From positions 120,001 through 152,000 of the forward strand of contig NZ_CP047931.1 of the NCBI RefSeq assembly GCF_014280175.1: 32,000 bases of DNA, written 5' to 3'. The stretch is from Synechococcus sp. A15-28 (GTDB taxonomy: Bacteria; Cyanobacteriota; Cyanobacteriia; PCC-6307; Cyanobiaceae). Shown piece by piece: positions 9,496-30,178 of the stretch. How positions within the stretch are numbered: the stretch's first letter is position 1; each line of letters starts with the position of its first letter. The notes beneath the pieces are model-generated. The model did not search any database. It was not told the origin of the DNA and saw only the letters and a list, made by a program, of their open reading frames with translations. The translations under genes and the position numbers were made by a program.

Positions 9496-9759
9496 ATGAG
9501 TGGAGAGCGCGTTGGGTTCCGCTTCAAGCACGCCGATGCGGTGGTCAAGCGCAACCCCCAGGGCCGTTCCCGCCGGGGTTGGGTGATGGAGCCGGTGGAA
9601 CAGACCACGAGTCGCGGCACCAAGATGCCCGCGTACCGGATTCGTTGGCGCGATAGTGAGCGCCCCGAAATCGTGCTGCAGCACATGCTGATCGCCGACC
9701 CGGACCCCACCCCTCCGCCCGAGGGTGTCAGCCTCGAGCCTCCTGCTCCCAAGGCCTGA
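9496..9759 (+). CDS. Small conserved hypothetical protein (87 aa)
   Basis: ATG start, core-like codon usage and a compact fit between lysS and a convergent gene. No recognisable motif. Confidence 0.5.
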   Translation: MSGERVGFRFKHADAVVKRNPQGRSRRGWVMEPVEQTTSRGTKMPAYRIRWRDSERPEIVLQHMLIADPDPTPPPEGVSLEPPAPKA

Positions 9760-9772
9760 GTCAGCTCAGGCC
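9753..9772. terminator. Perfect 8-bp stem / 4-nt loop hairpin shared by two convergent genes (possible bidirectional terminator)
   Basis: GGCCTGAG-TCAG-CTCAGGCC. The stem-loop contains the TGA of the + strand ORF (9757-9759) and the stop of the - strand ORF (9761-9763). There is no U-tract on either side. Confidence 0.35.
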
Positions 9773-10240
9773 GGCGTCCCGTCGCAACTGCTCAAGTTCC
9801 TGCTCGGCTTCGAACAGGGCCCAGTCCTTCTCCAGTGTTGAGGGGCTGGGTGTTTGTTGTTGTTGGTGAAGCTCCTTCAGCTGTTGCTCCACCTCGTTGA
9901 AGCGGCGTCCCAGATTTTCCAGGTCGGCCCAGAGGGCACGGCCCTGGCTCATCAGGCTGGTGAGATGTTGTTCGGCTTGCCCGGCTAGATCCGCTGCGCC
10001 GGCTGCCGTGGCACGCTCCACCCGGCTGCGCCAGGCCCGTACGTCCTCTGCCAGCCTCAGCAGCTGCTGGCGTTGCTGCTTCGCTTCGCCCTGCAGTTGC
10101 TTACGTTGCCGCTGGAGGGCTGTCGCCCGATCCTTCAGGTGCTGTTCGCTGAACAGTTGCTCCTGGACGGGGTTGTTGCGTAGAAAGGCGGAGAGCCGAG
10201 CATCCAGCTCCCGCTCCAGCTGCTCCAGCCAGCTGCTCAT
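9761..10240 (-). CDS. Coiled-coil hypothetical protein (159 aa, Q/R/E/L-rich)
   Basis: Heptad-like sequence throughout (LEQLERELDARL, QRQRKQLQGEAKQQRQQLLRLAEDV, EVEQQLKELHQQQQ). Its start overlaps the upstream gene's stop (ATGA). Function unknown. Confidence 0.6.
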   Translation of the reverse strand: MSSWLEQLERELDARLSAFLRNNPVQEQLFSEQHLKDRATALQRQRKQLQGEAKQQRQQLLRLAEDVRAWRSRVERATAAGAADLAGQAEQHLTSLMSQGRALWADLENLGRRFNEVEQQLKELHQQQQTPSPSTLEKDWALFEAEQELEQLRRDAGLS

Positions 10241-10470
10241 GCCTCGCCTGGGGTGGTGATCACTGGTTTTTCGATCTCTTTCTCCAGGGACTCGATCGCG
10301 GCTGTTTTGGATTTCAGGATCATCTGGGTGAGCTGTGCCGCTTTCACTTCGCCCACCTCACCTTCCAGTTCGCCCAGGCGATCGAAGGCCGCCATGTAGA
10401 CCGCGTCCAGGTCTTGGATCAGCTGCTCACGCTGCCGTTTGATGGCTTGACGCCGTTCGTCTGATTTCAT
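10237..10470 (-). CDS. Small helical hypothetical protein (77 aa), translationally coupled to the coiled-coil gene
   Basis: ATG at 10470, charged helical sequence, and a 4-nt ATGA overlap with the downstream ORF. Confidence 0.5.
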   Translation of the reverse strand: MKSDERRQAIKRQREQLIQDLDAVYMAAFDRLGELEGEVGEVKAAQLTQMILKSKTAAIESLEKEIEKPVITTPGEA

Positions 10471-10514
10471 GCGGCCTGAGCTCCTGGACTCCGTCTTTGG
10501 ATTAGTCTGTTAGC

Positions 10515-11464
10515 TCAGTTTGCCGGCAAAAGCAGATGCAGAGCCATCTGCTGGTGTGGATCGGTCCAGCGGCGTTGGATCCGCCAGCCGGCCTGGGCTG
10601 CGAGGGCGGCCGCGGAGTCCGGTGAGTACTTGACGCTGTGTTCAGTGATCCAGGCGTCGCCCTGGCGAAAGAACCAGGCCTCACCGCCCAGGTTTAAGGT
10701 CTGATCCTGTGTGCTCACCAGCGCCATTTCGATGCGCTGATGCCCCGCCTGCCATTGGGCCCGGTAGCGGAATTGCGTGGGATCGCCATCGCCCTGCAGG
10801 TCTCGGTTGAGCCGCTGCAGCAGGTTGCGGGCGAATGCGGCGGAAACGCCGGCGGCATCGTCGTAGGAGGCCTCCATCAGGGCCGGCTCGCGCGGTTGAT
10901 CCAGCCCCAGCAGCAGCGGCCCTCCAGCCAGCAGCCGCCGGGCACTGCGCAGAAAGTCGACAGCTTCCTCTGGAGTGAAGTTGCCCAAGGAGCTGCCAGG
11001 AAAGAAGCCGATGCGCCTTTGGCCGTCCAGAGCGGGATGCTGCGGCAGCTGCTCCAGGCGGGTGTGGTCACAGCAGATGCCCACCATGGCGGTGTTGGGG
11101 TGTCTGGCCGCGAGGCCGGAGAGCGCCTCCTTCAGGGCGCTGAGGCTGATGTCCAGCGCGGCGAAGACGCTGCTGCCCAGAGCTGTGAGCAGCGGATCCA
11201 CCTTGCGGGCATTCCCGATGCCGAATTCCACCACCATTCCGGGGCCCGTGGCGGCAGCGATGGCGGGTGCGTTCTTTTCCAGCAGAGCGATTTCCCGTTG
11301 GGTGAGGGTGTATTCCGGTTGCTTGCAGATCTCGGCGAACAGCCGGGATCCCTCGGCGTCGTAGAGCATCCATGCCGGTAGTTGGCGAGGACTGCGCCGC
11401 AAGCCATCCCGAACCAGGCGTTGCAGATCCGCCGAGGGTGGGTGGAGGTTGAGCAGGCTGATGC

Positions 11465-11468
<4 letters not shown>
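10515..11468 (-). CDS. egtD: L-histidine N-alpha-methyltransferase (EgtD-like, ergothioneine biosynthesis)
   Basis: 317 aa from the ATG at 11468. Motifs include LPAWMLYDAEGSRLFAEICKQPEYTLTQRE, EFGIGNARK, FFPGSSLGNF and the C-terminal SVKYS. The long upstream extension of the tracked ORF (to 11930) overlaps egtB and is rejected. Confidence 0.8.
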
Positions 11469-12613
<1,145 letters not shown>

Positions 12614-12645: not shown

Positions 12646-13023
12646 GTGCAGCGAACCATCGGTACCGTCAGCCCATCGATTCGGCTGAATCACTTGAGCG
12701 GTTCCGGCACGGTGCTGGTGGAGCGATATCGCCTGGAGGAACGGCTGAGTGGACCCGATTCGCTGCGTGGTTCCCTCTGGCGTGCAGTGGATGTGATGGC
12801 GGGCGATCTGCTGGTGGCCATTCGCCAACTGGAGAGCTCGGAATCCCAGGAGCGATTGCAGGGGGTGTGGCCACAGATGCAGATGCTGTGGCATTACCAG
12901 TTGCCCCGCTGCGGCGAGCTGGTGGAACTGCACGGGGCGTTATGCCTTGTGCGTGATTGGCAGGACGGCATCGCTTATGACCGGCTGCTGCATCAAAGGC
13001 GGGCTCGCCGCTTCAGGTGCTGA
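12646..13023 (+). CDS. Short ORF resembling only the N-lobe of a Ser/Thr protein kinase (possible truncated remnant)
   Basis: RYRLEERLSG...LWRAVD...LVAIRQL...LCLVRDWQDGIAYDRLL follows the order of kinase subdomains I-V, with R in place of the VAIK lysine. The ORF stops before any HRD/DFG region, 60 nt from the smpB remnant. GTG start. Confidence 0.4.
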   Translation: MQRTIGTVSPSIRLNHLSGSGTVLVERYRLEERLSGPDSLRGSLWRAVDVMAGDLLVAIRQLESSESQERLQGVWPQMQMLWHYQLPRCGELVELHGALCLVRDWQDGIAYDRLLHQRRARRFRC

Positions 13024-13082
13024 TCACCAACGAGGGGGTTTCGTCTGGTGTGTTCACCCTGTCCTGTCGGGCGGACCCGCTC

Positions 13083-13426
13083 GATCAGTAACGTTCAACC
13101 GCTGCTTTCACATCCTTTTTGGATTGCTTTTCCTTTTCGGCGGCGCGTTTGTCGTGCAACTTGCGATCTTTTCCCAGGCCGATGGTGAGCTTGATCTAGG
13201 AGCCTTTGAGGTGAATGTTGAGGGGGATCAGCGTCAGCCCTTTCTGATCCACCAAACCGCGCAGCTTCGATCTCACGGCGATGGGTCAGCAGTTTGTGGG
13301 TGCGCAAAGGGTCGTGGTTGAAGTAGCTGCCGGCGTGGGTGTGGGGTGAGATGTGCACGTTGTGCAACTGCAGATCAGGCAGAAGCCATCGCGAGGGTGG
13401 CTTTGCCGTTGCAGATCGACTTCACC
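13083..13426. repeat. Left copy of a direct repeat (smpB 3' region) flanking island 1
   Basis: Direct repeat with 18410-18769. It starts 2 nt beyond the smpB stop codon in both copies (GATCAGTAACGTT) and ends at CTTCACC. Confidence 0.85.
13085..13426 (-). pseudogene. 5'-truncated, frameshifted remnant of smpB (3' about 340 nt)
   Basis: Aligns base by base to intact smpB at 18412-18769, about nine positions in ten by eye. It has indels of 2, 13 and 1 nt and lacks the first ~48 codons. The translated fragment [22 protein letters not shown] matches intact SmpB and then goes out of frame. Confidence 0.85.
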
Positions 13427-13526
13427 AAGGTTTCCGACAACGAAGAAAATATTTGTTTCGATGATTGTATTTTTAACTAAGAGTTTTAAATGACATTCAC
13501 TGAAGGCTGGGCGTAAACTCAAATTA

Positions 13527-14609
13527 CTAGTTCAAGACGTTGTTCAGCAATTGTGTCCATTTTTTTTCGTTTGCTTTAGGAGAAAAGGGTAAGAGAATGT
13601 CTTCTCGTAAGCTTTTATATCTCAATGAGAGTTGATTATAATTTTCAATCGCACTATGAAGCATTGAGCTGAAATTCTCGCCTAACAATGATAACGAATT
13701 TAGTTCCTTATAACTTGGCAGCGGACTTGCTACACAGATACAACCTGCCCTGATTGAGTCAACTAATCTGTTGTGGCTAGCACCTTGCTTCTCTGGGTCA
13801 TTAGGATTGCTCGGTATTAGTGAGATGTGAGCCCTTGCCAATTCCTCATTGAATTGTTTTGGTTGCATGTAACCATTCCATTCTACAAATCTATAGTTCC
13901 ATTTTGGATATACATCTGGATTTTCCTTTAAAAAATTTCTAAAATAGTTTACAGCGTTTGTGGCTGTAAATACTGTAAACTCAATATCATAAGCATCAAA
14001 TTTACTTTGGGCAATATCTAAAAGTTTTTGATGTAAATAACAAAGATTCAACGCAGCACCAAACCATATAATTTTTATTGAAGAATTTTTATTGAGATTT
14101 TTGTAGTCTTCAAGGCTTTTGATTTGCCAGGGATCTTCAATTACATGAAAATGTAAGCCACTTCTCGAAGAACTTTGAGCAAGTTGCTTTAAAGACGACG
14201 TAGGACATACAACATGATCAGCTAAAAATAGTAAATCTCTGTAAAACTCACCTCTCTCATCTTTTCTGTTTAGGTGATGATTACTGTATAATACAATTAT
14301 GGGTATACCCATACGTTTCATTCTGGCAACTGCTGACAGGTTTGCAACATTGCACTTAATATCATCTCCGATCATTTTGCCTACCAAGCATATCCTTGGT
14401 AGGCCAAGACATTCGAGATATTCCGGAAACTCAGTGCTGAGACTTAGGCTTTTTGCTTGCATACCAATTGATTTAGCCGCATTAAGTGCAGGAATTAATT
14501 GAAGCCGTGCAGATGCGAGTTGAGAATAAGAATTTTCTTGTAAAATAGTTTCAGTTAAATCTCCATATCTGTCCCTATAGAAATTAAGAGCGAGAATTTC
14601 GTTTTGCAT
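13527..14609 (-). CDS. Paralog 1 of an unrecognised GT-B-like putative glycosyltransferase family
   Basis: Shares LASxRLQ, VGK, DPWQ, WFG and IPSxPxDPxKxGxSHNRLVDSIRAGC..ASPxxSYKEL with the two upstream genes. The ATG at 14609 sits 1 nt from the upstream stop. The alternative start at 14639 would overlap by 29 nt. Confidence 0.55.
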   Translation of the reverse strand: MQNEILALNFYRDRYGDLTETILQENSYSQLASARLQLIPALNAAKSIGMQAKSLSLSTEFPEYLECLGLPRICLVGKMIGDDIKCNVANLSAVARMKRMGIPIIVLYSNHHLNRKDERGEFYRDLLFLADHVVCPTSSLKQLAQSSSRSGLHFHVIEDPWQIKSLEDYKNLNKNSSIKIIWFGAALNLCYLHQKLLDIAQSKFDAYDIEFTVFTATNAVNYFRNFLKENPDVYPKWNYRFVEWNGYMQPKQFNEELARAHISLIPSNPNDPEKQGASHNRLVDSIRAGCICVASPLPSYKELNSLSLLGENFSSMLHSAIENYNQLSLRYKSLREDILLPFSPKANEKKWTQLLNNVLN

Positions 14610-14610
14610 C

Positions 14611-15783
14611 TTATAGAAAAATTGGATTGCAAGTATCAATATTTTTACTCTTCACCATTGTATTCTTTTGAATGTCACGAAGTATTAGCTCCCAGTTCTT
14701 AATATTAGTCGCCGGGTCAAATGGTGAAACTAATTTTTCCCTGTAGATGGAATACTTATCACATAATCGATCATAATTTAGTATCGCAGCTTTTAAAAGT
14801 TGATTAAAATCTTTGCCGAGAAGGCATATTTTTGATAATTCTTTGTAGCTTGGCATTGGACTGGCAATCGGTATACATCCCGATCGTATTGAGTCAATAA
14901 GGCGATTGTGGCTTACCCCAATTTTTGCCGGATCCTCAGGATCGGATGGAATCACTGCAATATCTATTTTGCTTAAGAAGTTCTCAAGCTGCTGAGGCTG
15001 GCTATTATTATCCCATGTAATCATTTCAAATTTCCATTTGCTTTTTGCAAAAGCTTTGTCTTGAATTGTGACTTTGATTAGTTCATGACTTATGGGCCTA
15101 CCAAGAAATCGAAAGGTTAATTTCATCCTTAATAGAGCAGGGTCTTTGATTTGCTTTAATGCATTACATAAATATGCTGTGTTATTTGGAGCACCAAACC
15201 ATCCTATTGTGTAAGCTTTGTCCCCCATTTTTTTCCTGTAATCCTTTAGGTTTTTAATTTGCCACGGGTCACGAATCACGTATTGGCATAAATTTTTTCT
15301 TATATATGCACTCGCTAGTTTTTGCATCGCAACGCTAGGGAATATGATTGAATCAGCATAATAAATAAGATCTGAATAAAGTTCAGCAATATTATTTTGC
15401 TTGATAATTTGGTGGTCACAGTATAGGAGTGATATATGAGTTCCTTTTCTTTTCAATCTTGAAATTGCAGCCAAGTTTGCCATTGCCATGCTGTGGGATA
15501 GTAATTCGTCTGTTGTAGACATTTTTCCTACAAGGCAAATCGACGCATTCCCCAAATGTAAAAAGTCGTCTGGATGAGCACTGTGCATACTCCACAATGA
15601 TCTATCAAAATTTAGAGTTTTTGCGGCAATCAATGCGGGATACATCTGTAGCCTAAATGAGGCAAGGCTTGCATTGCTAGATTTTTTATTTATTAATTCA
15701 CTTAGTTTTTCCCCGGACTTATTTTCAATGAAACTCAAGCAGATTATTTTCTTGTCCATGTTACTTTTTGAATTAGGATTCAC
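14611..15783 (-). CDS. Paralog 2 of the same GT-B-like family
   Basis: Same motif set (LASFRLQ, DPWQIKNLKDY, IGWFG, VIPSDPEDPAKIGVSHNRLIDSIRSGCIPIASPMPSYKEL). An alternative ATG at 15759 would remove the 11-nt overlap. Confidence 0.55.
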   Translation of the reverse strand: MNPNSKSNMDKKIICLSFIENKSGEKLSELINKKSSNASLASFRLQMYPALIAAKTLNFDRSLWSMHSAHPDDFLHLGNASICLVGKMSTTDELLSHSMAMANLAAISRLKRKGTHISLLYCDHQIIKQNNIAELYSDLIYYADSIIFPSVAMQKLASAYIRKNLCQYVIRDPWQIKNLKDYRKKMGDKAYTIGWFGAPNNTAYLCNALKQIKDPALLRMKLTFRFLGRPISHELIKVTIQDKAFAKSKWKFEMITWDNNSQPQQLENFLSKIDIAVIPSDPEDPAKIGVSHNRLIDSIRSGCIPIASPMPSYKELSKICLLGKDFNQLLKAAILNYDRLCDKYSIYREKLVSPFDPATNIKNWELILRDIQKNTMVKSKNIDTCNPIFL

Positions 15784-16876
15784 TATTTATGATGCTTTGT
15801 ACTATTGATTGCCAGTGAAGCTTGTTTGCTGTTGGACTAAACCTTTCAATTATATTACAGCGATTTGCATCATACTGCCTCCGCAATAAATATTGATTTT
15901 TGGCTACATAGCTCATCATGCTTGAGAAATTATTCCCTATAATGGCCAGACTTGAGAGCTCTTTGTAGCTCTGCATAGGGCTTGCTATGGGTATGCATCC
16001 AGCTCTTATAGAATCAACCAATCTATTATGACTTACCCCTAACTTTGCCGGGTCATTTGGGTCTGATGGAATCAGTACAATTTCTGCTCTATGCAGTTCT
16101 TCCTGAAGTTGATTAGGTTGGTTATTATTTTTCCACTTCAAATATGTAAATTTAATTTTTTTTGCTGAAAGATTAAGTGACTTTACTTTATTTTTTATAA
16201 ATTCAATCGCTTCAAGAGAGCTCAAGATAGTCAAGCGTAATTGCTTGTTTTGACTGTCTGAATGATATATTTGGGGTAGTATATTTATAAGGTATTGAGC
16301 GTTTAGTCCGGAACCAAACCATAGTAGATTTAAGCAATTTGAACTTGAGCTCTTGTGATAAGAATGCTCCTCTACTTGCCAAGGATCTTCTACTACATAT
16401 ATGTTCTTGCCCTGTCCAAGGGAGTGGTTTTTTAAAGATTCTTTTAGCGCCTGTGTGGGGCAAATAATTAAGTCTGAATAATAAATTAGATCCCGGTATA
16501 GCTCGCCAATCCTTGTTTTTTTTATTATGTGATTATCACTGTAGATTAGTGCTTGGACAGATTTACACCTTTTTTGTCTACATACCGCTGCCAAATTAGC
16601 CATTGCCATGCTGCTGATCAGGTGATTGCTATTTGCCGATAATTTCCCTACTATTGTCAAAAAAGATTTTTCTTTGAATATTTCGGTATTTAGGTGTTCA
16701 GAGTGTAGACTAAATCTCTTGCATTTTATATTCATTTTATTGAGAGCCTCATACAAGGGATAAAGTTGCAGCCTTGTTGAAGCTAAGCTTGAGTTTTTGT
16801 ATGATTGATCGAAGTTGAGCCTGCCCTTTTTATTAATCATAAACTCTAAAAATATTGCGCTTCTTGATATATTCAT
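15773..16876 (-). CDS. Paralog 3 of the same GT-B-like family
   Basis: Same motif set (LASTRLQ, EDPWQVE, LLWFG, LIPSDPNDPAKLGVSHNRLVDSIRAGCIPIASPMQSYKEL). Confidence 0.55.
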   Translation of the reverse strand: MNISRSAIFLEFMINKKGRLNFDQSYKNSSLASTRLQLYPLYEALNKMNIKCKRFSLHSEHLNTEIFKEKSFLTIVGKLSANSNHLISSMAMANLAAVCRQKRCKSVQALIYSDNHIIKKTRIGELYRDLIYYSDLIICPTQALKESLKNHSLGQGKNIYVVEDPWQVEEHSYHKSSSSNCLNLLWFGSGLNAQYLINILPQIYHSDSQNKQLRLTILSSLEAIEFIKNKVKSLNLSAKKIKFTYLKWKNNNQPNQLQEELHRAEIVLIPSDPNDPAKLGVSHNRLVDSIRAGCIPIASPMQSYKELSSLAIIGNNFSSMMSYVAKNQYLLRRQYDANRCNIIERFSPTANKLHWQSIVQSIINSES

Positions 16877-16926
16877 AGAAATGAATGCTCATATTGATAT
16901 GCTAGCATCTAAAAAATTTTGTTCTT

Positions 16927-17910
16927 ATGCCGTCGATAGGTATTTATCATGGAGATGAAGACTGGGTATTAAAAGGTATCGGTCAAGACTTGGCGCGATC
17001 CTTCAAGGCTTTAAGCGTTCCTGGACTTGAGATTCAGACTACGGATCAAGTGTTTAATAAAATTCGTTTAAAAACGGATTTTCATCTGTTCGTACAGCAA
17101 GGCCAACTAAATGAAAATTGTTCGAACAATCCTGAAAAAGTGCCGGAAGGCTCAATATGTTTATTTACTCATTTAGATATTCGTAATTTTAAGCCAAGAA
17201 TTCTCCATAAGTGTAAATATGTAATATTTAATTCGTCCATTCAATTGTCACAAGCTATCGCCAATGGATATAACCCAGTAAATGCGGTGCTCAAGCCACA
17301 TGCTGTAGACCCAGATTTACATAGAATTATTAGTGAGGATGATCCAAAAATGCAATTTGTGCTTTCAGATTTGCATAAGAAAGGTTATCCACATTCGATG
17401 CATTCATCTGTTGGTTTTTGTGGCCGATATTGGGATAAAAGTACTTACACAAGACGAAAAAATTATGATCTAATTAAACTTGTTATTTGCGATCTTCTCG
17501 ATAAGCGTATTCCGGTCTTAGTTATGGGTCCAGGTTGGAAGGACTTTCTCGAATTGTCCTCTGAATATTTGGTAGTTGTAGAAACAAAATACAAAAACTA
17601 TCCATACTATTACAATCTAATGAGGGTTTTTTCGAGTTTATCAATACATGAGGGTGGGCCTTTGCCTTTGCTTGAGTCGATGTGTTGTGGCGTATACCCA
17701 GTTGTTACTAATACAGGTTTTGCGTCAGATATTATTTCTGATAAGCAACATGGAACTATTGTTTCACCTTTTGACAAACCAGCTCATCAAGCTGGATTAT
17801 TGTCAGACGTCTACTTTACCCATCGAATAGATGCAGAAGCTCTTAGAGGTCGAGCTTCTAAATTCAGTTTCTCTTCTTTGTCTAAAGTGATTTTGAGATT
17901 GGTTCTGTAG
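16927..17910 (+). CDS. Glycosyltransferase, GT4-like (retaining, EX7E motif)
   Basis: The C-terminal motif SIHEGGPLPLLESMCCGVYPVVTNTG contains E-x7-E followed by a G..PV strand, typical of GT-B family 1/4. Divergent from the paralog operon, with only a 50-nt spacer. Confidence 0.7.
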   Translation: MPSIGIYHGDEDWVLKGIGQDLARSFKALSVPGLEIQTTDQVFNKIRLKTDFHLFVQQGQLNENCSNNPEKVPEGSICLFTHLDIRNFKPRILHKCKYVIFNSSIQLSQAIANGYNPVNAVLKPHAVDPDLHRIISEDDPKMQFVLSDLHKKGYPHSMHSSVGFCGRYWDKSTYTRRKNYDLIKLVICDLLDKRIPVLVMGPGWKDFLELSSEYLVVVETKYKNYPYYYNLMRVFSSLSIHEGGPLPLLESMCCGVYPVVTNTGFASDIISDKQHGTIVSPFDKPAHQAGLLSDVYFTHRIDAEALRGRASKFSFSSLSKVILRLVL

Positions 17911-18409
17911 GCTCGGGGCATCGCCATTTATATTCAAGATTTATTGACTAATGCATGTGCAGTAAAAAATTCTGAGAAAAACTGCTAAGCATCAAGCAAT
18001 AAGCTTCAAGTAAATATCGTTTGTTTAATTCCTTAATTTTCTTTGTTTTTGCCTGTCGTCTCTGTCAGCATTCAATTGATTTGCGTGTATCTGCAGGCCG
18101 ATAAAATTTTTAATCTGGTTATTTCGCTCTGCAGGGATTAATCGTCTATGTCCGGATTTCTTTGTGCTTTTGATTAAGAAATAGATTGCGTTGTTTTTTG
18201 ACTGTACTCTATTTCCTTGCTTCGTTTGAATGAATTAGATTTTGCTATTTGCCTGGATAGTTCCCTTGTTCAGGTTCAAATTTTGCTTAGAGCCTTTCGC
18301 TAAGGCGCGTGTTGATAATCGCCTTAATTATTTTTCTCTTTGCTTGATTCTGTTCTTTGATGCGGATCGCTCTCGTTCACTTTTTCTTGATGTGGATGTG
18401 GGATTACCT

Positions 18410-18769
18410 GATCAGTAACGTTCCATCGCTGCTTTCACATCTTTTTTGGATTGCTTTTCCTTTTCGGCGGCTCGTTTGTCGTGCAACTTTCGCCCTTTAC
18501 CCAGCCCGATGGTGAGCTTGATCCAGGATCCCTTGAGGTGAATGTTGAGTGGGATCAGCGTTAGGCCTTTCTGATCCACTAGGCCGCGCAGCTTGTCGAT
18601 CTCACGGCGATGGGCCAGCAATTTGCGGGTGCGCAGCGGGTCGTGGTTGAAGTAGCTGCCGGCGTGGGTGTGGGGTGAGATGTGCACGTTGTGCAACTGA
18701 AGCTCTCCATTACGGATCATGCAGAAGCCATCGCGCAGGTTGGCTTTGCCGTTCCGGATCGACTTCACC
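18410..18769. repeat. Right copy of the direct repeat (within intact smpB)
   Basis: See 13083-13426. Contains a 62-nt block (18638-18699) identical to 13309-13370. Confidence 0.85.
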
Positions 18770-18912
18770 TCGGTCCCCACCAGCTCGATGCCGGTTTCCA
18801 GGGTTTCGAGGATCTCGTACTGATGTCGTGCCTGCCGGTTGTCCGCCAGCATCCGGTTGGCTGCGGCTCGCGCCGCGGCTGCGGCTGCTTTTTTCGCTCC
18901 TCCCTTGGCCAT
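18412..18912 (-). CDS. smpB: SsrA(tmRNA)-binding protein SmpB
   Basis: 166 aa from the ATG at 18912. Motifs [58 protein letters not shown] and a basic C-terminal tail. The upstream extension of the tracked ORF overlaps the ruvB start and is rejected. Confidence 0.9.
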
Positions 18913-18962
18913 GGCTCCGGTTGCGTCTTCCGACCCTATCCAGGTCTGGGTACCCTGCCTGC

Positions 18963-20009
18963 ATGGCGATTGTCTCCTCCAGCTCCGGTCGCAAGCCACC
19001 ACGCCGCCCCGAAGCGCTGGTGGACCCCCAGCCGGCCCCTGAAGAGGTGGTGAGTCGGCCGGAAGACAAGCTTCGGCCCCAGCGCCTGGACGACTACATC
19101 GGTCAGAAGGAGCTCAAGCAGGTGCTAGGCATTGCGGTGGAAGCGGCGCTTGGCCGTGGCGATGCCCTCGACCATGTGCTGCTCTATGGCCCGCCGGGCC
19201 TGGGCAAAACGACCATGGCCATGGTGCTGGCCGCAGAAATGGGAGTGCAGTGCAAGGTCACCAGCGCACCAGCTCTGGAACGCCCGCGCGACATCGTCGG
19301 TCTGTTGGTCAACCTGCAGCCCCGCGACTTGTTGTTCATCGACGAGATTCATCGCCTGAGTCGGGTGGCGGAGGAGTTGCTCTATCCCGCGATGGAAGAC
19401 CGTCGCCTCGATCTCACCGTGGGCAAGGGCAGCACGGCGCGGGCCCGGTCTCTCGACTTGCCGCCCTTCACCCTGGTGGGGGCCACCACCCGCGCCGGAT
19501 CGCTGAGCTCCCCGCTGCGGGATCGCTTCGGCTTGATCCAGCGGTTGGAGTTTTACGGCCAGGATGATTTGGAAGCGATCGTGGAGCGCACTGCAGGGCT
19601 GATCGGGGTCGCTCTCACATCGCAGGCCCGCAGCAGCATTGCCGCCTCGTGTCGCGGTACACCCCGGATTGCCAACCGCCTGCTTCGCCGGGTGCGTGAT
19701 GTGGCCTGTGTGCGAGGCGCCGGCACTGGTGCCATTGATCAAGCTCTGGTGGGGGAGGCACTGAGCCTGCACCGCGTTGATCATCGCGGCCTTGATGCCA
19801 GCGATCGGCGCTTGCTGCAGCTGCTGATCGACCACCACGGTGGCGGCCCGGTGGGCCTCGAGACCCTGGCAGCGGCCCTTGGCGATGACCCCGCCACCCT
19901 TGAGACTGTGGTGGAACCCTTTTTGCTGCAGCAGGGGTTGCTGATGCGCACCCCCCGCGGCCGGATGGTCACCGATGCAGCCCGCAGTCATATCGGCGAG
20001 GCGGCATGA
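18963..20009 (+). CDS. ruvB: Holliday-junction branch-migration helicase RuvB
   Basis: 348 aa from the ATG at 18963. Motifs [15 protein letters not shown], Walker [13 protein letters not shown], Walker [11 protein letters not shown], and [18 protein letters not shown]. Confidence 0.95.
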
Positions 20010-20770
20010 ATCGGATTTTGGTGCTGCTTCTGAGCCTGGTGCTGACGCTGCCGGTGCATGCCCTGGATCTGCAGGGGCTCTACGAGCAGGCGCTGACGGC
20101 AAGCCGTCAGGGGGATTTTGTGGAGGCATTGCCCTTGTGGGACCGCTTCCTGGAGCAGGCCCCTGAGGATGCAGCAGCGCTAAGCAACCGCGGCAATGTG
20201 AGGCTTGCCCTTGGGGATGCGTCTGGGGCGATCGACGACCAGAGCGCCTCGATGGCTCTGGCGCCGGAGGAAAACGATCCGCATCTGAACCGGGGTACGG
20301 CAGAGGAGGCCCTTCAGGACTGGTCCGCGGCAGCCGACGACTATCTCTGGATTCTGGAGCGAGATCCGCAGGATGCCTCGGCCCTTTACAACTTGGCCAA
20401 TGTGCGCGGCTCGCAAGGGGACTGGCCTGAGGCGCGAGAGCTTTATAGCCAGGCTGCCCTCGCCCGCCCCGGCTTCGCCATGGCCCGATCTAGCGAGGCG
20501 CTGGCGGCCTGGCAGGTGGGCGATCTCGATTGGGCGGAGGCGGAATTGCGCAAACTGATCCGCCGATATCCCTTGTTCGCCGACGCTCGGGCGGCCCTCA
20601 GCGGCTTGCTTTGGCGCTCAGGATCCAGTGGTGAAGCCGAAAGCCACTGGGCCGCGGCGGCCGGGCTGGATCAGCGTTACCGCAAGGCTGACTGGCTCCA
20701 GCAGGTGCGCCGCTGGCCACCGCAACCTACGGCGGATCTGATGGCGTTCCTGGCCTTGGAGGCGTCCTGA
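20006..20770 (+). CDS. Secreted/periplasmic TPR-repeat protein
   Basis: Signal peptide [19 protein letters not shown], then TPR-like repeats ([29 protein letters not shown]). The ATG overlaps the ruvB stop (ATGA). Confidence 0.75.
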
Positions 20771-20771
20771 G

Positions 20772-21953
20772 ATGACCCAAGCAGCCTCCCTCTCCGATCG
20801 ACTCAGCCGAGAGCTGCCTGAGCTGCTGCAGCTGCGCCGGCATCTGCATGCCCACCCCGAACTCAGCGGCGAGGAACATCAGACGGCTGCCCTGGTGGCG
20901 GGCGAATTACGTCAGCTGGGTTGGCGCGTACGCGAGGGAGTTGGCCGCACCGGGGTGCTTGCCGAATTGGGTCCTGACCACGGCCCCACGGTGGGCTTAC
21001 GGGTGGACATGGACGCCCTGCCTGTGGAGGAGCGCACCGGTCTGCCCTATGCCTCCACCCGCCAGGGCTTGATGCATGCCTGCGGCCATGATTTGCACAC
21101 TTGCACGGGCCTTGGTGTCGCACGCTTGCTGGCTCAGGAGCCCCGTTTAGGGGCTCAAGTGCGGCTGCTGTTTCAACCCGCCGAAGAGTTGGCCCAGGGG
21201 GCGGTGTGGATGCGAGAAGCGGGGGCGGTGGAGGGACTCGATGCGTTGTATGGCGTGCATGTGGTGCCGAATCTGCCGGTGGGCACGGTGGGAATCCGGC
21301 GGGGCTGTCTCACGGCGGCGGCCGGTGAGCTGGAGATCCTGGTGCAGGGGGAGGGCGGCCATGGCGCCCGTCCCCATCAGTCGGTGGATGCTGTTTGGCT
21401 TGCGGCTCGGGTGATCACGGAGCTGCAGCAGACCATCGCCCGCCGCTTGGACGCCTTGCAGCCGGTGGTGGTCAGTTTCGGCAAGGTGGAAGGGGGTCGT
21501 GCCTTCAACGTGATTGCCGATCAAGTGCGCTTGCTGGGCACGGTTCGCTGTCTGGATTTGCAGCAGCACGCCCAGCTGTCGACTTGGATTGACGACACGG
21601 TGCAGCGGATCTGTGCCAGCGGCGGCGGCACTGCTGTGGTGAACTACCGCTGCATTGCCCCACCGGTGCACAACGATCCGCAGCTCACAGACCTGCTGGA
21701 GCGCTCCGCGGTGGAGTGCCTGGGCCGAGCCAAGGTGCTGCCAGTGGAGCAACCCTCCCTGGGGGCCGAAGACTTTGCTGAGTTACTTCGGGATGTGCCG
21801 GGAATGATGGTGCGGTTGGGGGTGGCTGGGCCGGAGGGGTGTGCGCCGCTGCATAACGGAGCTTTTGCCCTGGAGGAAGGCGCTCTCGGTGTGGGCATTG
21901 CTGTTCTCACGGCCACCGTGCTGGCGTGGATCACGGAGAACACGTCGGCATGA
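20772..21953 (+). CDS. M20D-family amidohydrolase (N-acyl-L-amino-acid amidohydrolase / hippurate-hydrolase-like)
   Basis: LRRHLHAHPELSGEEHQTA, LRVDMDALPV, HACGHDLH, QPAEE and RLG motifs are characteristic of the peptidase M20D/ama family. Confidence 0.85.
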   Translation: MTQAASLSDRLSRELPELLQLRRHLHAHPELSGEEHQTAALVAGELRQLGWRVREGVGRTGVLAELGPDHGPTVGLRVDMDALPVEERTGLPYASTRQGLMHACGHDLHTCTGLGVARLLAQEPRLGAQVRLLFQPAEELAQGAVWMREAGAVEGLDALYGVHVVPNLPVGTVGIRRGCLTAAAGELEILVQGEGGHGARPHQSVDAVWLAARVITELQQTIARRLDALQPVVVSFGKVEGGRAFNVIADQVRLLGTVRCLDLQQHAQLSTWIDDTVQRICASGGGTAVVNYRCIAPPVHNDPQLTDLLERSAVECLGRAKVLPVEQPSLGAEDFAELLRDVPGMMVRLGVAGPEGCAPLHNGAFALEEGALGVGIAVLTATVLAWITENTSA

Positions 21954-22788: not shown

Positions 22789-22825
22789 AGGTCCCACCTG
22801 CGGGACTCTTGCTAGCTTTTGAACA

Positions 22826-22920
22826 CCACTAGGGGTGTCCGGGTCTTCTTACAAGGCTTGGACTGAGATCACACCCTCCGAACCTGAAACCGGGTCATGC
22901 CGGCGCAGGGAAGTGTATGA
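22826..22920 (+). promoter_or_regulatory. TPP (THI-box) riboswitch in the thiC leader
   Basis: Contains AGGGGTG...GGACTGAGATCACACCC...GAACCTGAAACCGGGTCATGCCGGCGCAGGGAAG. This has the conserved CUGAGA, ACCUGA and GCCGG..AGGGA elements of the THI element, about 55 nt upstream of the thiC ATG. Confidence 0.8.
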
Positions 22921-22941
22921 GCGTGATCTGTGGCTATCTAG

Positions 22942-24339
<1,398 letters not shown>

Positions 24340-24340
24340 G

Positions 24341-25171
24341 ATGAAGTCATTTATATATGGACATTGTGTGGGGCATGCCGGTTCTACTTACTTATCGAAA
24401 TTGGTAAAGTATCTTTATCCGGAACTTGCCGTTGTACACGGAAAAGAAGTTACCTTGCAAAAATATAATGAATCTTATATGTATAAACTCCCGGAAAATG
24501 CATCCAATATATTTTCCTCAGGTGGAAGTTTGTTTGGTATTCATTGGGATCGTGCCGCATTCAATCCATACTTAAGTTTTTTGAAAGAACAAAGCACCAA
24601 GGATTTTGTATTAGCCAGAAATCTTGAGGAACAAGTCTGCTCAATGTATGCGCACTCCCTAAATCGTTACTCAGTGGATGAAATGAATCCATCTAATACT
24701 TTTATTCAAATGCTTATTTCGAAAGTTTCGATTCTGGGTCAAATAATTAGTTTAGCTGGTAAGAAAAATATTTCATCAATAGTAATTGCACGAATAATAC
24801 CATTAGTATTTTATACCTGGCGCATCACCTATTTTTATCATTTATTCAATGAACTGGAGCACAAGAATGATGAATATATCTTTATGGAAGATCTTTACTC
24901 AAAACCATCTTCAACATATACTTTTTTGAAGAAAAATTTCGGTTATGTAAATGAGGAAAACTGGGAAAAAATGGAGTCTTTTTCAGCATCAAAAAACGAA
25001 CATCAGAATAATAGAAAAGATAAATTGACAAAATTAATTCGATCCGACGAGTTTCGTTATGCAGCAAATTATTTTAATCAATTAAATCCGTTAAAATTAA
25101 AGTTCAGTAAATCCATTCTTAGCCATAAACGCTCTTTCCAATTTTTGCTAGACATAGGATTTGAATTGTAA
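24341..25171 (+). CDS. Sulfotransferase-like protein (tentative)
   Basis: The N-terminal GHAGSTYLSKL resembles the 5'-PSB loop (xxGTT/STxL). LARNLEEQVCSMYAH resembles the 3'-PB RxPxxxxxS.Y motif. The later FMEDLYSKP...FLKKNFGY resembles the usual YEDL...FLG segment. Motifs are read by eye only. Confidence 0.45.
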   Translation: MKSFIYGHCVGHAGSTYLSKLVKYLYPELAVVHGKEVTLQKYNESYMYKLPENASNIFSSGGSLFGIHWDRAAFNPYLSFLKEQSTKDFVLARNLEEQVCSMYAHSLNRYSVDEMNPSNTFIQMLISKVSILGQIISLAGKKNISSIVIARIIPLVFYTWRITYFYHLFNELEHKNDEYIFMEDLYSKPSSTYTFLKKNFGYVNEENWEKMESFSASKNEHQNNRKDKLTKLIRSDEFRYAANYFNQLNPLKLKFSKSILSHKRSFQFLLDIGFEL

Positions 25172-25330
25172 ATTAATTAATAATTGAATGATAGTCTGCT
25201 GCATTAATGGTTGACGCATAATTTGCATGAATATATGGAATATTAAGCATTCCGTAACAGATCTGTAGGTAAATCTGTTGTCACTAATCATAGAATAACA
25301 GTAGAATCAATTCTTCAGATAATATATTTA

Positions 25331-25897
25331 TCACCCTGGTAAATACCCTACTTGTTTTGTCAATATGTGGATATCCACCAAATATATCGCTAAGAAGTGT
25401 TCGGTCGCTTCTATTTGTTGAATCTGATAGTCATCAGAAGTTTTATCTATATTTAGCAAAATTATTTTCGTATTTATGAAATTGTGATTTTGCATTGTGC
25501 CTAAATACCTTGACCTTCCAAATATTGTTCAATGATTATTTAAATAGTCTTTCAGTTCTTCTTTAATGCATAAATCAATTTCAGAGAGTGAGTTTGAGAT
25601 GATTTCATCAAACGATAATGGTAAAAAAATTTCATTTGCAACCTCAAATCTACCATAAAAGCTTAAGTCACTCCCTCTTTTAAAATGACATAATCTATTC
25701 GCAATAAGCTGTGGACTGATGATGATTCCAAGATTGCCTACCTGTGATTGTAAATAAGAGTGAGGTACCGAGGAGTTATTTGTGATTATAAACGTAGCAC
25801 TAAAATAGGAATTTAAATATTGAAGAAGAGGGAAGTTGATGTGATCTCCATCAGTAAGAGTACCGTCCCAATCTATTGCAATAATCTTCTTTTTCAT
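25331..25897 (-). pseudogene. HAD-IIA-like phosphatase interrupted by an in-frame TGA (25529-25531) and 3'-truncated
   Basis: The N-terminal part (ATG 25897 to 25529) has motif I IAIDWDGTL and motif II IITNNSS. The same frame stays open for 57 more codons after the TGA (…TKIILLNIDKTSDDYQIQQIEATEHFL…), which is unusual for such AT-rich DNA. No recognisable C-terminal motifs follow. Confidence 0.55.
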
Positions 25898-25926
25898 GTA
25901 TAATTGGTTTGAAGTCACTTTCTAGC

Positions 25927-26661
25927 ATGTTAAAAAAAAGTGTACTAATTGTTGGTTCAAGTTCTGGATTGGGGAGAGCACTATTTGATTTATATTCATC
26001 TAATGGGGATAATGTTACCGGTTTAAGCCGATATAGAAATTGCTCAGTCCTAGATGAGCATCAATTAAAAGGTGATATTCATAAGTATGATTTATTGCAA
26101 AGTAATACACAAAAAGATTTTAATCATATTGTTATGAATATGTCATTTTTCACCCATTGCATCTTTTGTGTTGGAGGAGGCTATGGAATAAAATCAATGA
26201 TGCCCTCTTTTGATGATTTGCTTTTACTATTAAAACTTAATCTCTTGGTTCCGGCCGCTCTTGTGAGATCATTATTTGATATGAAGAAAATTAATAATAT
26301 CACTAAAATATGTTTTATATCTAGTATAGCCGCAGAAGAAGTGACTGCATCTGTTGGATACACAACAGCAAAATTAGCTCTCAATGGTTATTCTAAACTT
26401 CTAAGTAAGTATGACAATAAGGTAGGGCCTGTGATGACTGTGAAACTGGGGGCTGTAGAGGGTTACGGAGCAGCATTTGATAGATTAAAGGTAAATAATA
26501 AACCAGCCTACGAGGCATTTATACATGAACGGCTTAATGGAAGTTTTCCAATGCATGCGACCAATGTTGCTGAAGCAATTGTTTCTTTGCTAGATTTACC
26601 CTACAATTTAGTAAATGGTCTCACCATCAAATTGGACAATAGCGAGTCGTCAAAGGTTTAA
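25927..26661 (+). CDS. Short-chain dehydrogenase/reductase (SDR)
   Basis: Glycine-rich VLIVGSSSGLGRAL cofactor motif near the N-terminus, catalytic S…YTTAKLAL (YxxxK), about 244 aa. The ATG at 25927 is preferred over the TTG at 25909. Confidence 0.85.
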   Translation: MLKKSVLIVGSSSGLGRALFDLYSSNGDNVTGLSRYRNCSVLDEHQLKGDIHKYDLLQSNTQKDFNHIVMNMSFFTHCIFCVGGGYGIKSMMPSFDDLLLLLKLNLLVPAALVRSLFDMKKINNITKICFISSIAAEEVTASVGYTTAKLALNGYSKLLSKYDNKVGPVMTVKLGAVEGYGAAFDRLKVNNKPAYEAFIHERLNGSFPMHATNVAEAIVSLLDLPYNLVNGLTIKLDNSESSKV

Positions 26662-26665
26662 TCTT

Positions 26666-27430
26666 ATGAGTCTCTACACTAGTGGCATACAAAAATATAG
26701 CTTGCCAAATGATAGTTTGACGAACCAACTAATTGATTCTATCATCAAGGCAACTTCTGAATATACCGATAAAAGCTTCATTTCAGGTTTAGATCATATT
26801 CATGATTTTGTGGATGATAATGAATTAAATGAATACAGATTAAGTATTATCCAAAAGCTAAATTATAATCAGTTTGCAAGTAAACTAATTTTTTCTCATT
26901 GCAAAGAGATTCTTACTAGTATTTTAGGCCCCGATATTGCTATACAAAAAAATGTGGGATTATCAATTCAGATGCCAAACGACTCGAGTTCCCTTCTGCC
27001 TATACATAGTGATGTTTTTAGTAGTGACTGCTCACCTTATGAGCTCGTGATTTGGATTCCCTTAGTCAAGTGTTATAAGACAAAATCTATGTTCTACTTG
27101 CCCTTTGACCATTGTTCTAGTCTTCATGAATACCTACATTTACTAAGCTCAAATAACATTTCGAGTATCGACGAATTTCAATCAAAGTTCCAAAATAACT
27201 ATAAATTTTTAGAAATCACCCCCCCATCTTTTGCTCTTTTTTATCATTCTATATGGCATGGGAATGTGATTAATTGCGAGCCTGAAACGAGGTGGTCTAT
27301 AAATCTGAGAGTAAAAGGATTATTTACGCCATATAAAGGAAAGCAGATAGGAGATTATTTTACAATTGCCCAAATTTCAGATGCAACAAAACTTTCTTCA
27401 TTGATCGATGAGATATATTATGACTCATAA
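26666..27430 (+). CDS. Fe(II)/2-oxoglutarate-dependent oxygenase (PhyH-like)
   Basis: The HxD…H facial-triad pattern (LPIHSDVF … FYHSIWHGNVIN) followed by RWSINLRV (a 2OG-binding Arg) is consistent with the phytanoyl-CoA-dioxygenase-like fold. ATG at 26666. Confidence 0.6.
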   Translation: MSLYTSGIQKYSLPNDSLTNQLIDSIIKATSEYTDKSFISGLDHIHDFVDDNELNEYRLSIIQKLNYNQFASKLIFSHCKEILTSILGPDIAIQKNVGLSIQMPNDSSSLLPIHSDVFSSDCSPYELVIWIPLVKCYKTKSMFYLPFDHCSSLHEYLHLLSSNNISSIDEFQSKFQNNYKFLEITPPSFALFYHSIWHGNVINCEPETRWSINLRVKGLFTPYKGKQIGDYFTIAQISDATKLSSLIDEIYYDS

Positions 27431-27866
27431 AAGAGCATTTGGCTATATTTCCAGTACTCCATTTTGGCGAGGACAGTATATTCCGCAAAAAATTCAAAAC
27501 CTCATCGTGCGCGATTATTGTATTCAAAGGGATATTAATTTCGTATGGTCTCTTCCTGAAATTTCATTAATTGACTCCTCTTTGTCTTTTAATGAACTTT
27601 TACGTTTAAGGAATGAAAATGATGTAACTGACATTGTATTTATCTCGTCTCAGATGCATAAACCCAATCTTCTCAGATCTATTATAAACACCTGTTTTGC
27701 TGAAAATGTAAATATTCATTTTGCTATTGAAAATGAAGAATACAATTTATGCTCAACTGTATATCCAGAAGTGGCCATCAACAAACTAATCTATGAATCT
27801 ATGATGGCTTCACATCGCCGTGAGGTCCCTGCTTCACTGCTAGCTCAGTATGCTAAAATTAAATGA
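27420..27866 (+). CDS. Small uncharacterised protein, LIC12192-like (sporadic carbohydrate-cluster family; from memory, unverified)
   Basis: The N-terminus FGYISSTPFWRGQYIPQKIQNLIVRDYC resembles what I recall of a TIGRFAMs family found next to a 2OG oxygenase in scattered glycan loci. It overlaps the oxygenase gene by 11 nt. An alternative ATG lies at 27408. Confidence 0.5.
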   Translation: MTHKRAFGYISSTPFWRGQYIPQKIQNLIVRDYCIQRDINFVWSLPEISLIDSSLSFNELLRLRNENDVTDIVFISSQMHKPNLLRSIINTCFAENVNIHFAIENEEYNLCSTVYPEVAINKLIYESMMASHRREVPASLLAQYAKIK

Positions 27867-27881
27867 TATACAATTAAAAGC

Positions 27882-28400
27882 ATGAGATCATTGATTTGTG
27901 TTGCATCAAATTTCCAAGATGAAGAAGTTATTTATCCATTCTATAAATTACAAGAATTCTCTGAGGTGACGATTGCTTCTTGTGACGGTAAAACAGTTTA
28001 TGGTAAGTATGGAGTCCCTGCGAGGGCGTCGAAGCGCTTCTCCGAAATTGACACTAATGAATATGATATATTGATTATTCCAGGCGGATTTGAGTGTCCA
28101 GATCGTCTAAGAATTGACGATGAATGTATTCGAATTGTTCAAGAGATGATTGATAAAAATAAGGTTGTAGGTGCGATATGTCATGGTCCTTGGGTTCTCA
28201 TTTCTGCAAATCGCACAAAAGGTCGTGATATGACTGGATATAAAGCAGTCCATATTGATCTTTCCAACTCAGGTGCAAATGTTTTGGATAGTAGTGATGT
28301 TGTAGTTGACGGGAATTTAGTAACTGCTCCACACTACAAGAACAATCCACAATTTATGCTTGCTGTTCAATCCTTGGCCACCAATAAAAGCCATGTCTGA
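27882..28400 (+). CDS. DJ-1/PfpI-family protein (class-I glutamine-amidotransferase-like fold)
   Basis: YDILIIPGG, the nucleophile elbow VGAICHGPWVL, and VVVDGNLVTAP. 172 aa. Confidence 0.85.
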   Translation: MRSLICVASNFQDEEVIYPFYKLQEFSEVTIASCDGKTVYGKYGVPARASKRFSEIDTNEYDILIIPGGFECPDRLRIDDECIRIVQEMIDKNKVVGAICHGPWVLISANRTKGRDMTGYKAVHIDLSNSGANVLDSSDVVVDGNLVTAPHYKNNPQFMLAVQSLATNKSHV

Positions 28401-30162: not shown

Positions 30163-30178
30163 ATTTTTTTAGATACCA

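Follow-up and report, generated by a model that had tools for sequence, protein, structure and literature searches.

The sequence considered here is a 32,000-nt stretch of Synechococcus sp. A15-28 (GCF_014280175.1, NZ_CP047931.1, positions 120,001-152,000 of the forward strand; hereafter the window), in which a low-GC island lies between a complete and a 5'-truncated copy of smpB. Synechococcus sp. A15-28 is a clade III strain (PMC7522525). The complete gene, on the minus strand at 18412-18912 with its TGA stop codon at 18412-18414, encodes 166 residues that match Pfam SmpB over their full length (E = 3.7e-56). The protein is 99% identical to SmpB of related Synechococcus, and the proportion of non-synonymous differences (pN) from relatives is 0.000-0.011. 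The second copy, a pseudogene on the minus strand at 13083-13431 that was delimited by alignment and by the homology of its flank to relatives, starts at about codon 47/48 and is thus without the first ~47 codons. Relative to the intact copy it has deletions of 13, 2 and 1 nt, and it has an in-frame stop codon (TGG to TAG) at 13196-13198.

A repeat search and alignment placed the corresponding part of the intact gene (codons ~47-166 and 2 nt past the stop) at 18410-18774 on the minus strand; in both copies the repeat starts 2 nt beyond the stop codon. The repeat spans ~349 nt and the copies are ~90-92% identical overall, with blocks of 90% (13083-13267 and 18410-18594), 94% (13267-13376 and 18596-18705) and 87% identity (13394-13431 and 18737-18774). 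An initial annotation of this DNA had described an AT-rich island between the intact gene and a truncated copy bearing 2-, 13- and 1-nt indels, with both repeats starting 2 nt past the stop and the island filling the gap exactly. Alignment and coordinates agree with that description: the 4,978 nt of the island (13432-18409) fill the space between the two copies. The annotation had also mentioned a 62-nt identical core. This core (13309-13370 and 18638-18699, minus strand) is fully identical in the alignment, but it is simply the most conserved stretch of smpB, and five related species match the window there at 97% identity; we therefore rejected it as evidence for a crossover site.

The island has a GC content of about 0.36 (0.35-0.39) compared with about 0.63 (0.60-0.67) in the flanks, and its limits follow from this shift, from its absence in six relatives (L001-L005 and L081) and from its presence in four metagenome contigs (L110-L113), all described below. 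It contains only four glycosyltransferase-type genes. Three are on the minus strand, cargo A (13527-14639, 370 residues), cargo B (14611-15783, 390 residues) and cargo C (15773-16876, 367 residues), and their products are ~37-39% identical to one another. Their overlaps of 29 nt (14611-14639) and 11 nt (15773-15783) are consistent with one operon, and a 159-nt repeat (14807-14965 and 15927-16085, 70%) merely reflects their paralogy. The three paralogs had no match in Pfam, NCBIfam, PDB sequences, PHROG or PADLOC, and only the predicted fold was informative. Modelled with AlphaFold2 on the basis of an alignment of 23 sequences, cargo B is predicted to adopt the GT-B fold of glycosyltransferases (predicted local distance difference test, pLDDT, 85.7; predicted template modelling score, pTM, 0.84), and Foldseek matched it to the PDB structures 6eji, SenB, Gtf3/GtfC and BshA, which are GT-B/GT4-type (E ~1e-9; template modelling score 0.55-0.7). 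The model indicates that cargo B is a GT-B-fold glycosyltransferase, and we extend this prediction to cargo A as a member of the same family and to cargo C by its paralogy to A and B.

The fourth gene, on the plus strand at 16927-17910, encodes a GT4-type glycosyltransferase of 327 residues (Pfam Glycos_transf_1, E = 7e-13, and Glyco_trans_1_4) with weak NCBIfam matches to EpsE/stp2. Between it and the smpB stop codon lies an AT-rich non-coding stretch of ~500 nt (17911-18409) with no open reading frame (ORF). The statement in the initial annotation that no integrase is visible held: no integrase domain was found by Pfam in the island ORFs, and six-frame translations of 17911-18409, scanned for an integrase remnant, gave no Pfam match of any kind at E <= 10. 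The island also lacks primase and helicase genes, capsid or terminase genes like those of phage-inducible chromosomal islands, and any replicon or plasmid gene that we could see. Phage and defence searches of the island returned nothing except one generic glycosyltransferase PHROG match, and promoter and terminator scans gave no signal above shuffled expectation. No tRNA or tmRNA gene is present in the window.

The cargo genes (13527-16876) neighbour the egtB/egtD ergothioneine genes (10515-12613), and the selenosugar synthase SenB is among the many generic GT4 enzymes matched by the model. In strain YX-04-1 a cargo homolog lies directly upstream of egtB on the same strand. The likeness to SenB and the proximity to egtB/egtD are probably a coincidence of the insertion site.

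Island-free relatives and the native junction

We compared 80 genome loci encoding close SmpB relatives by tblastn and blastn. No second smpB was found in any of the 80, nor in L081 or L102-L109. The five closest species (L001-L005) and L081, a metagenome contig encoding an identical SmpB protein, are island-free and have a single smpB. In all six, homology to the window covers ruvB and smpB, ends at 18409/18410 and restarts at the partial copy, from 13426 to 12999. Beyond the partial copy, the identity of the flank to clade relatives is the usual 86-88%.

Natively, smpB is followed by a convergent gene for a Ser/Thr kinase of 547-706 residues, which abuts or overlaps the smpB 3' end; the full-length gene encodes a Pkinase domain in L102 and L103. 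In the window, tblastn with the 547-residue protein of L082 identified a remnant of this gene on the plus strand at 12646-13088, with residues 1-105 at 12694-13008 and residues 515-547 at 12990-13088. The C-terminal remnant overlaps the stop region of the partial smpB, as it does in island-free genomes. Because of this overlap, it is the partial copy and not the intact gene that holds the ancestral chromosomal junction. These comparisons show that the locus is an insertion and that the partial copy lies in the original junction. Island-free alleles with a single smpB on the side of the ORF at 12646-13023, for which the initial annotation had proposed to look, do exist among these loci, and the ORF is part of the kinase remnant. 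No island-free relative among the 80 genome loci, L081 and L102-L109 carries the partial copy.

The kinase gene is also decaying independently elsewhere. It is without its N-terminal 220-300 residues in L001-L003 and is reduced to residues 1-222 in L093, and it is full length in L004, L005, L082 and L102. Several loci (L020, L025, L036, L048, L053, L067, L070 and L079) have titles naming Chitinophaga, Pimelobacter, Bradyrhizobium, Bordetella, Microcystis and others, yet they show picocyanobacterial ruvB-smpB-kinase-egtB synteny and look like mislabelled bins of metagenome-assembled genomes.

The same island was found in four metagenome contigs. L111, from BATS, is 99.8% identical to window positions 14169-17424. 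L110 is 93% identical across 12997-18517 and spans both junctions, L112 is 94.5% identical to the island and includes the distal junction, and L113 is 92.4% identical to the island. No integrase was found among the genes called in these contigs. The distal junction, where the island is joined to smpB at about codon 48, is base for base the same in the window, L110 and L112, which shows that the insertion had a single origin and is one ancient event. Additionally, the partial smpB of L110 lacks the stop codon and all three deletions, so these lesions arose later, in the A15-28 lineage. Since the contigs reproduce the island, and L110 both of its junctions, an assembly artefact is excluded.

In L110 and L112 the stretch TACGATCGTCGAAAC upstream of the distal junction resembles TACGAGATCCTCGAAAC, which is smpB codons 34-39, and its offset is nearly colinear (p = 0.03 in a shuffle test). 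Over the 28 nt in between, identity to smpB is 46%, and the differences are mostly changes from GC to T or A. In the window itself the smpB-like similarity upstream of the partial copy is not significant (p = 0.07). Positions 13432-13476 (minus strand) may be the scrambled remainder of a duplicated segment that, tentatively, was once ~45 nt longer and reached back to about smpB codon 34. A GGAAACC motif adjoins the distal joint and is also found 23 nt upstream of the corresponding point in smpB.

Divergence of the two smpB copies

Direct repeats that bracket an insert can arise by a local tandem duplication of the smpB 3' part followed by an unrelated insertion, and they can also be produced by faulty assembly. 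The divergence of the copies bears on the first of these. The two copies are 90-92% identical to each other and 89-93% identical to smpB of other clade species, so they are no closer to one another than to other species, and trio site patterns are star-like. The intact copy and the partial copy of the window differ by 17.5 synonymous and 9.5 non-synonymous changes, and nearly all of the non-synonymous changes (9 of ~10) lie on the partial copy. Copies that were identical when the insertion happened should show only 5-10 synonymous differences; depending on the assumptions, the Poisson probability of the observed number is between 2.5e-5 and 0.03 without L110.

Using L110, we reconstructed the partial copy at the split between A15-28 and L110. 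This ancestral copy differs from the intact gene by 23.5 synonymous (Sd) and 4.5 non-synonymous (Nd) changes, which corresponds to a proportion of synonymous differences (pS) of 0.284 and a pN/pS of 0.06. These values are indistinguishable from those of smpB compared between species (pS 0.23-0.38; pN/pS 0.00-0.07). By comparison, the two partial copies have diverged since their split with a pN/pS of 0.55 and with indels; the truncated copy has been drifting neutrally since insertion. As the ancestral copies differ almost only at synonymous sites and to the extent seen between species, they were already functional alleles of different lineages when they were joined, and this pre-existing divergence excludes a local duplication. 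The copies are thus not sisters of the kind that the initial annotation had named as the alternative to its model. With both junctions reproduced in independent metagenome assemblies, we give next to no credence to either a tandem duplication or an artefact. Instead, the pattern of substitutions shows that one smpB segment was imported with the island from another lineage of the same clade.

Which of the two copies was imported is less clear. The initial annotation had proposed that the present 3' end of the intact gene is derived from the insert, and some of our data point the same way. All 10 of the 10 window-specific changes in the repeat segment of the intact copy are from GC to AT, compared with 104 of 190 in the adjacent native genes (binomial p = 0.002). 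The intact smpB of L110 shares the rare codons GGT, CGA and CGA with the window, and at synonymous sites all six island-free relatives are closer to the ancestral partial copy than to the intact one. These data weakly indicate that the 3' end of the intact gene is the imported part. The distance data do not decide between the copies: the intact segment has a pS to relatives of 0.27-0.38, equal to the native ruvB baseline of 0.26-0.36, with a sampling error of ~0.05, and the values for either copy overlap that baseline. The variants of the intact copy are not shared preferentially with island-linked alleles elsewhere.

We also tried to map the crossover by informative sites, distance matrices, trio patterns and exclusive sharing, and rejected all of these, as native and imported segments could not be assigned. 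The differences between the copies are spread over the whole repeat, and the relatives are ~10-12% diverged, star-like, reticulate and equidistant. Exclusive sites shared with the window number 16 for L004, 5 for L081 and 2-3 for the others; because the relatives are reticulate, none of the genomes can stand for the native state. Of the relatives, L004 resembles the window least overall (87.5%), yet its 16 exclusive sites lie within 18775-20950, in ruvB and the tetratricopeptide repeat gene, which suggests a past recombination tract between the L004 and window lineages.

The smpB-to-egtB slot in other genomes

The initial annotation had called smpB an unusual target. It is less exceptional than it seemed: other Synechococcus carry this cargo family repeatedly at the smpB 3' end. 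Homologs of the cargo family with 33-48% identity lie directly after smpB in at least five other loci, the genomes L010 and L017 and in the metagenome contigs L089, L095 and L099; homologs are also found elsewhere, in clusters for type I secretion and ABC-2 export. The slot from smpB to egtB is filled differently in L010, L017, L082, L089, L093, L095 and L099 and is empty in most loci. In the other loci with cargo islands adjacent to smpB there was no integrase match, tRNA or second smpB, and no remnant of smpB was found at E <= 10 at the distal island ends of L010, L017, L082, L089, L095 and L099. L082 (Synechococcus sp. YX-04-1) has a 2-kb low-GC islet at 9500-11600, with one cargo homolog, between the kinase 5' end and egtB. 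The islet entered this neighbourhood at another point and has no smpB repeat.

The position at which native sequence gives way to island sequence differs among these loci. In the window it lies at 2 nt past the stop codon. In L095 and L089 it lies ~12 codons before the stop, where a GC-rich smpB turns AT-rich for its last ~12 codons just after the conserved block GCCGAAAAGGAAAAGCAATC. The smpB genes of L017, L010 and L099 also diverge only within their last codons, each at its own position. The GC content at third codon positions (GC3) of the last 24 smpB codons is 0.33-0.50 where cargo lies directly downstream (window, L010, L089 and L095) compared with 0.62-0.79 in island-free loci. Judged by these compositions and alignments, recombination joints in the smpB 3' end are a general feature of the slot, with lineage-specific positions. 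The C-terminal tail of the SmpB protein was rejected as a marker of island-linked alleles, as the tails vary naturally; only the AT-rich codons of L095 and L089 were used.

The cassette of L093 is arranged homologously, with a B-like gene (43% identity) followed by an A-like one (48% identity to cargo A), which is the last cargo gene, and then by a full-length smpB. The latter, at 1892-2386, has a GC3 of 0.25-0.5 in a GC-rich genome and encodes a protein 91% identical to SmpB of the window. It lies at the distal end of the cassette and abuts the middle of the kinase gene, and its island-like composition is unusual for a core gene. An exact match to the L093 SmpB protein was absent from the collection searched; its nearest relatives, L102-L109, are ordinary island-free loci.

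These loci raise the question of whether the whole smpB-island-smpB' arrangement was imported ready-made, by a double crossover through flanking core genes, the duplication having been made in another genome. Cassettes without a duplicate (L095, L010 and L099) show that the slot is replaced by homologous recombination, the flank phylogeny is reticulate, as the exclusive sites of L004 illustrate, and L093 combines the homologous cassette order with a distal smpB copy. However, the flank that adjoins the partial copy and the kinase C-terminal remnant without a break matches clade relatives at the level usual for them. Moreover, a ready-made import would only relocate the duplication; a single crossover or a one-sided event would still be required. 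We consider this explanation improbable.

A similar contrast applies to the replacement flexible genomic islands that determine the glycotype, which according to Rodriguez-Valera and colleagues are reportedly exchanged by homologous recombination in flanking core genes. The locus resembles them in its low-GC glycosyltransferase content and in having one slot, from smpB to egtB, with strain-specific versions. It differs in that a double crossover leaves no duplicate, whereas the window, L110 and L112 keep the displaced partial smpB. Thus, the displaced copy is a record of a one-sided or single-crossover event.

Routes of entry and their implications

Based on these data, we propose a model for the origin of the locus. 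We think it probable, with moderate confidence, that a single ancient insertion was driven by homology, either as a circle that entered by a single crossover or through homology-facilitated illegitimate recombination (HFIR). In this model, a low-GC cassette of surface glycosyltransferases would arrive physically linked to smpB sequence of a second Synechococcus from this clade; genomes that have the cassette family right after smpB are common, and one of them is the likely donor. The imported smpB segment would then pair and recombine with the resident gene. By one route, a circularized fragment holding the smpB segment and the cassette would insert by one crossover (Campbell type). By the other, smpB homology would anchor only one end of a linear fragment, and its other end would be joined illegitimately (HFIR, or '3'-end displacement'). 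Both routes would leave a complete, functional smpB upstream of the cassette and a 5'-truncated copy downstream that overlaps the kinase 3' end. Homology would stop 2 nt past the smpB stop codon because the donor's island began there. To arrive at the map of the locus, a single homologous exchange within smpB and a single new joint near codon 48 are needed. We infer RecA-type rather than site-specific recombination, a substrate that was either circular or linear, and the identity of the donor. The Campbell model of the initial annotation therefore stands in so far as a foreign smpB segment recombined with the resident gene; the circle would be only one of two routes, as one-sided HFIR gives the same map.

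Several points weigh against this model. Neither viral nor metagenome scans yielded a circular contig, and no donor genome was observed. An integrase could have been lost from an insertion of this age, whose island copies have diverged by 7% and whose partial smpB has decayed. A homolog of the cargo lies beside a truncated Phage_integrase in Prochlorococcus (L087). Several independent islands break within the last ~12 smpB codons, just after a 20-nt conserved block, and this could be read as a preferred recombination site. Lastly, marine Synechococcus are not known to be naturally transformable.

Alternatively, the island may have been a site-specific integrative element, tycheposon-like or of another integrase-bearing type, with attB in the 3' part of smpB and a surrogate 3' end in attP, whose integrase was later deleted. 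A complete gene, an insert and a 5'-truncated copy form the same map as attL and attR after integration into a gene 3' end, related cassettes use the smpB 3' end repeatedly, and the 500 nt of non-coding DNA lie where a proximal integrase would sit. Additionally, in L087 (Prochlorococcus GCA_001632075.1, 9224-11107) the cargo homolog (38% identity) lies 96 nt from the 226-residue truncated Phage_integrase, inside a genomic island; no tRNA was found within 10 kb of it. Conversely, the window island and L110-L113 hold no integrase or remnant of one, and the L087 integrase has no match in the metagenome cargo loci, including L089, L093, L095 and L099. The repeat is long and diverged and has no short perfect core beyond the generally conserved stretch, and the positions of the junctions vary between lineages in a manner not predicted by a fixed att core. 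The window lacks tRNA and tmRNA genes, smpB does not feature among the att sites of tycheposons, and IMG/VR viral contigs carried no cyanobacterial smpB fragment, junction sequence or cargo. Because of the long diverged repeat, the varying junctions, the lack of a recombinase in any instance and the lack of viral relatives, we rate an element with a lost integrase lower than homology-driven insertion and consider it fairly unlikely.

For Rhs, CdiA and type VI secretion system (T6SS) effector-immunity loci, C-terminal (3'-end) displacement has been attributed to HFIR (Kirchberger et al. 2017, PMC5361080), as it reportedly was by Jackson et al. in 2009. As in Rhs and T6SS displacement, the window has a complete gene with a new 3' part, inserted DNA and a 5'-truncated orphan 3' fragment of the previous allele, and a conserved part of the gene serves as the homology anchor without an integrase. 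Homology of the orphan fragment ends abruptly at 13431 in a non-homologous junction to foreign DNA, as expected of HFIR. However, Rhs and T6SS loci have hypervariable toxin 3' ends and immunity genes, and displacement diversifies the gene, whereas here a conserved housekeeping gene is merely restored, the glycosyltransferase payload is unrelated and there is one displaced copy only.

Campbell-type insertion-duplication is mainly a laboratory tool or a feature of plasmids. The locus is like it in that the direct repeat is the shared homology segment and one copy is complete and the other truncated; it differs in that the repeats were already ~8-10% diverged when joined and no plasmid functions accompany them. 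Recombination between the repeats would, by inference, excise a circle again, restore the empty site and release a molecule able to re-integrate, so the structure is potentially mobile without an enzyme of its own. Islands that integrase places in gene 3' ends likewise have direct repeats at both ends and a reconstituted target gene, but they encode a recombinase, and the crossover nucleotide at the smpB slot is not constant across independent insertions. Tycheposons use a tyrosine recombinase and ~40-nt att sites in seven tRNA/tmRNA genes, their flanks are a full and a partial copy of the target, and old partial copies are preserved as fossils; that study does not mention smpB (Hackl et al., bioRxiv 10.1101/2020.12.28.424599). 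The window shares with them a low-GC cargo island in Prochlorococcus/Synechococcus flanked by full and partial target copies. It differs in its long repeat and protein-coding target and in having no recombinase, no tRNA/tmRNA gene and no replication or packaging hallmarks.

A more speculative reading, at which the AT-rich full-length smpB of L093 hints, goes beyond this model. It is possible, although we think it unlikely, that the cassettes of the slot form a family of integrase-less mobile units that bring their own homology arm in the form of smpB sequence. In L093 this arm would be the whole gene, AT-rich but conserved in protein sequence; A15-28 would have a segment of 118 codons, and L095 and L089 AT-rich tails of 12 codons. 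A RecA-type cycle would consist of excision of a circle from repeat to repeat, transfer, and re-entry into any host smpB by a single crossover. If true, the cassettes would be 'homing' on a housekeeping gene that is conserved universally, without a dedicated recombinase.

The window contains a second AT-rich island at 24340-32000 (GC 0.29-0.40), directly after the thiC stop codon, which runs past the window end; homology to relatives stops at 24297-24305. It encodes a short-chain dehydrogenase/reductase (SDR), a DJ-1/PfpI protein, a thiamine pyrophosphate (TPP)-dependent enzyme, an enolase-superfamily protein and several ORFs without a family. An ordinary TPP riboswitch (22821-22928; Rfam RF00059, 60.3 bits) lies upstream of thiC (22975-24339).

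Marine picocyanobacteria have very large pangenomes that are concentrated in low-GC islands, mostly without mobile-element machinery, and how these islands gain genes is a long-standing question. The components of the locus are of known kinds: low-GC glycosyltransferase islands, insertion-duplication and 3'-end displacement. Their combination is new, in that we found no paper in which housekeeping smpB serves as a homology arm for an integrase-less surface-glycan cassette in marine Synechococcus; no paper linked smpB to island integration in cyanobacteria, and the A15-28 genome paper is silent on the locus. With empty sites in relatives, the same junction in three independent copies and evidence at the codon level, the locus is an unusually readable fossil, recording how a surface-glycosylation cassette and a piece of the neighbouring core gene came from another species and were fixed by homology with no detectable integrase. 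This suggests that a conserved gene can serve the cassette beside it as a portable homology arm. The smpB-kinase-egtB slot is a recurrent hotspot for one uncharacterized family of GT-B glycosyltransferases, a family that, to judge by what surface-glycan islands are known to do, probably matters for resistance to phages and grazers.

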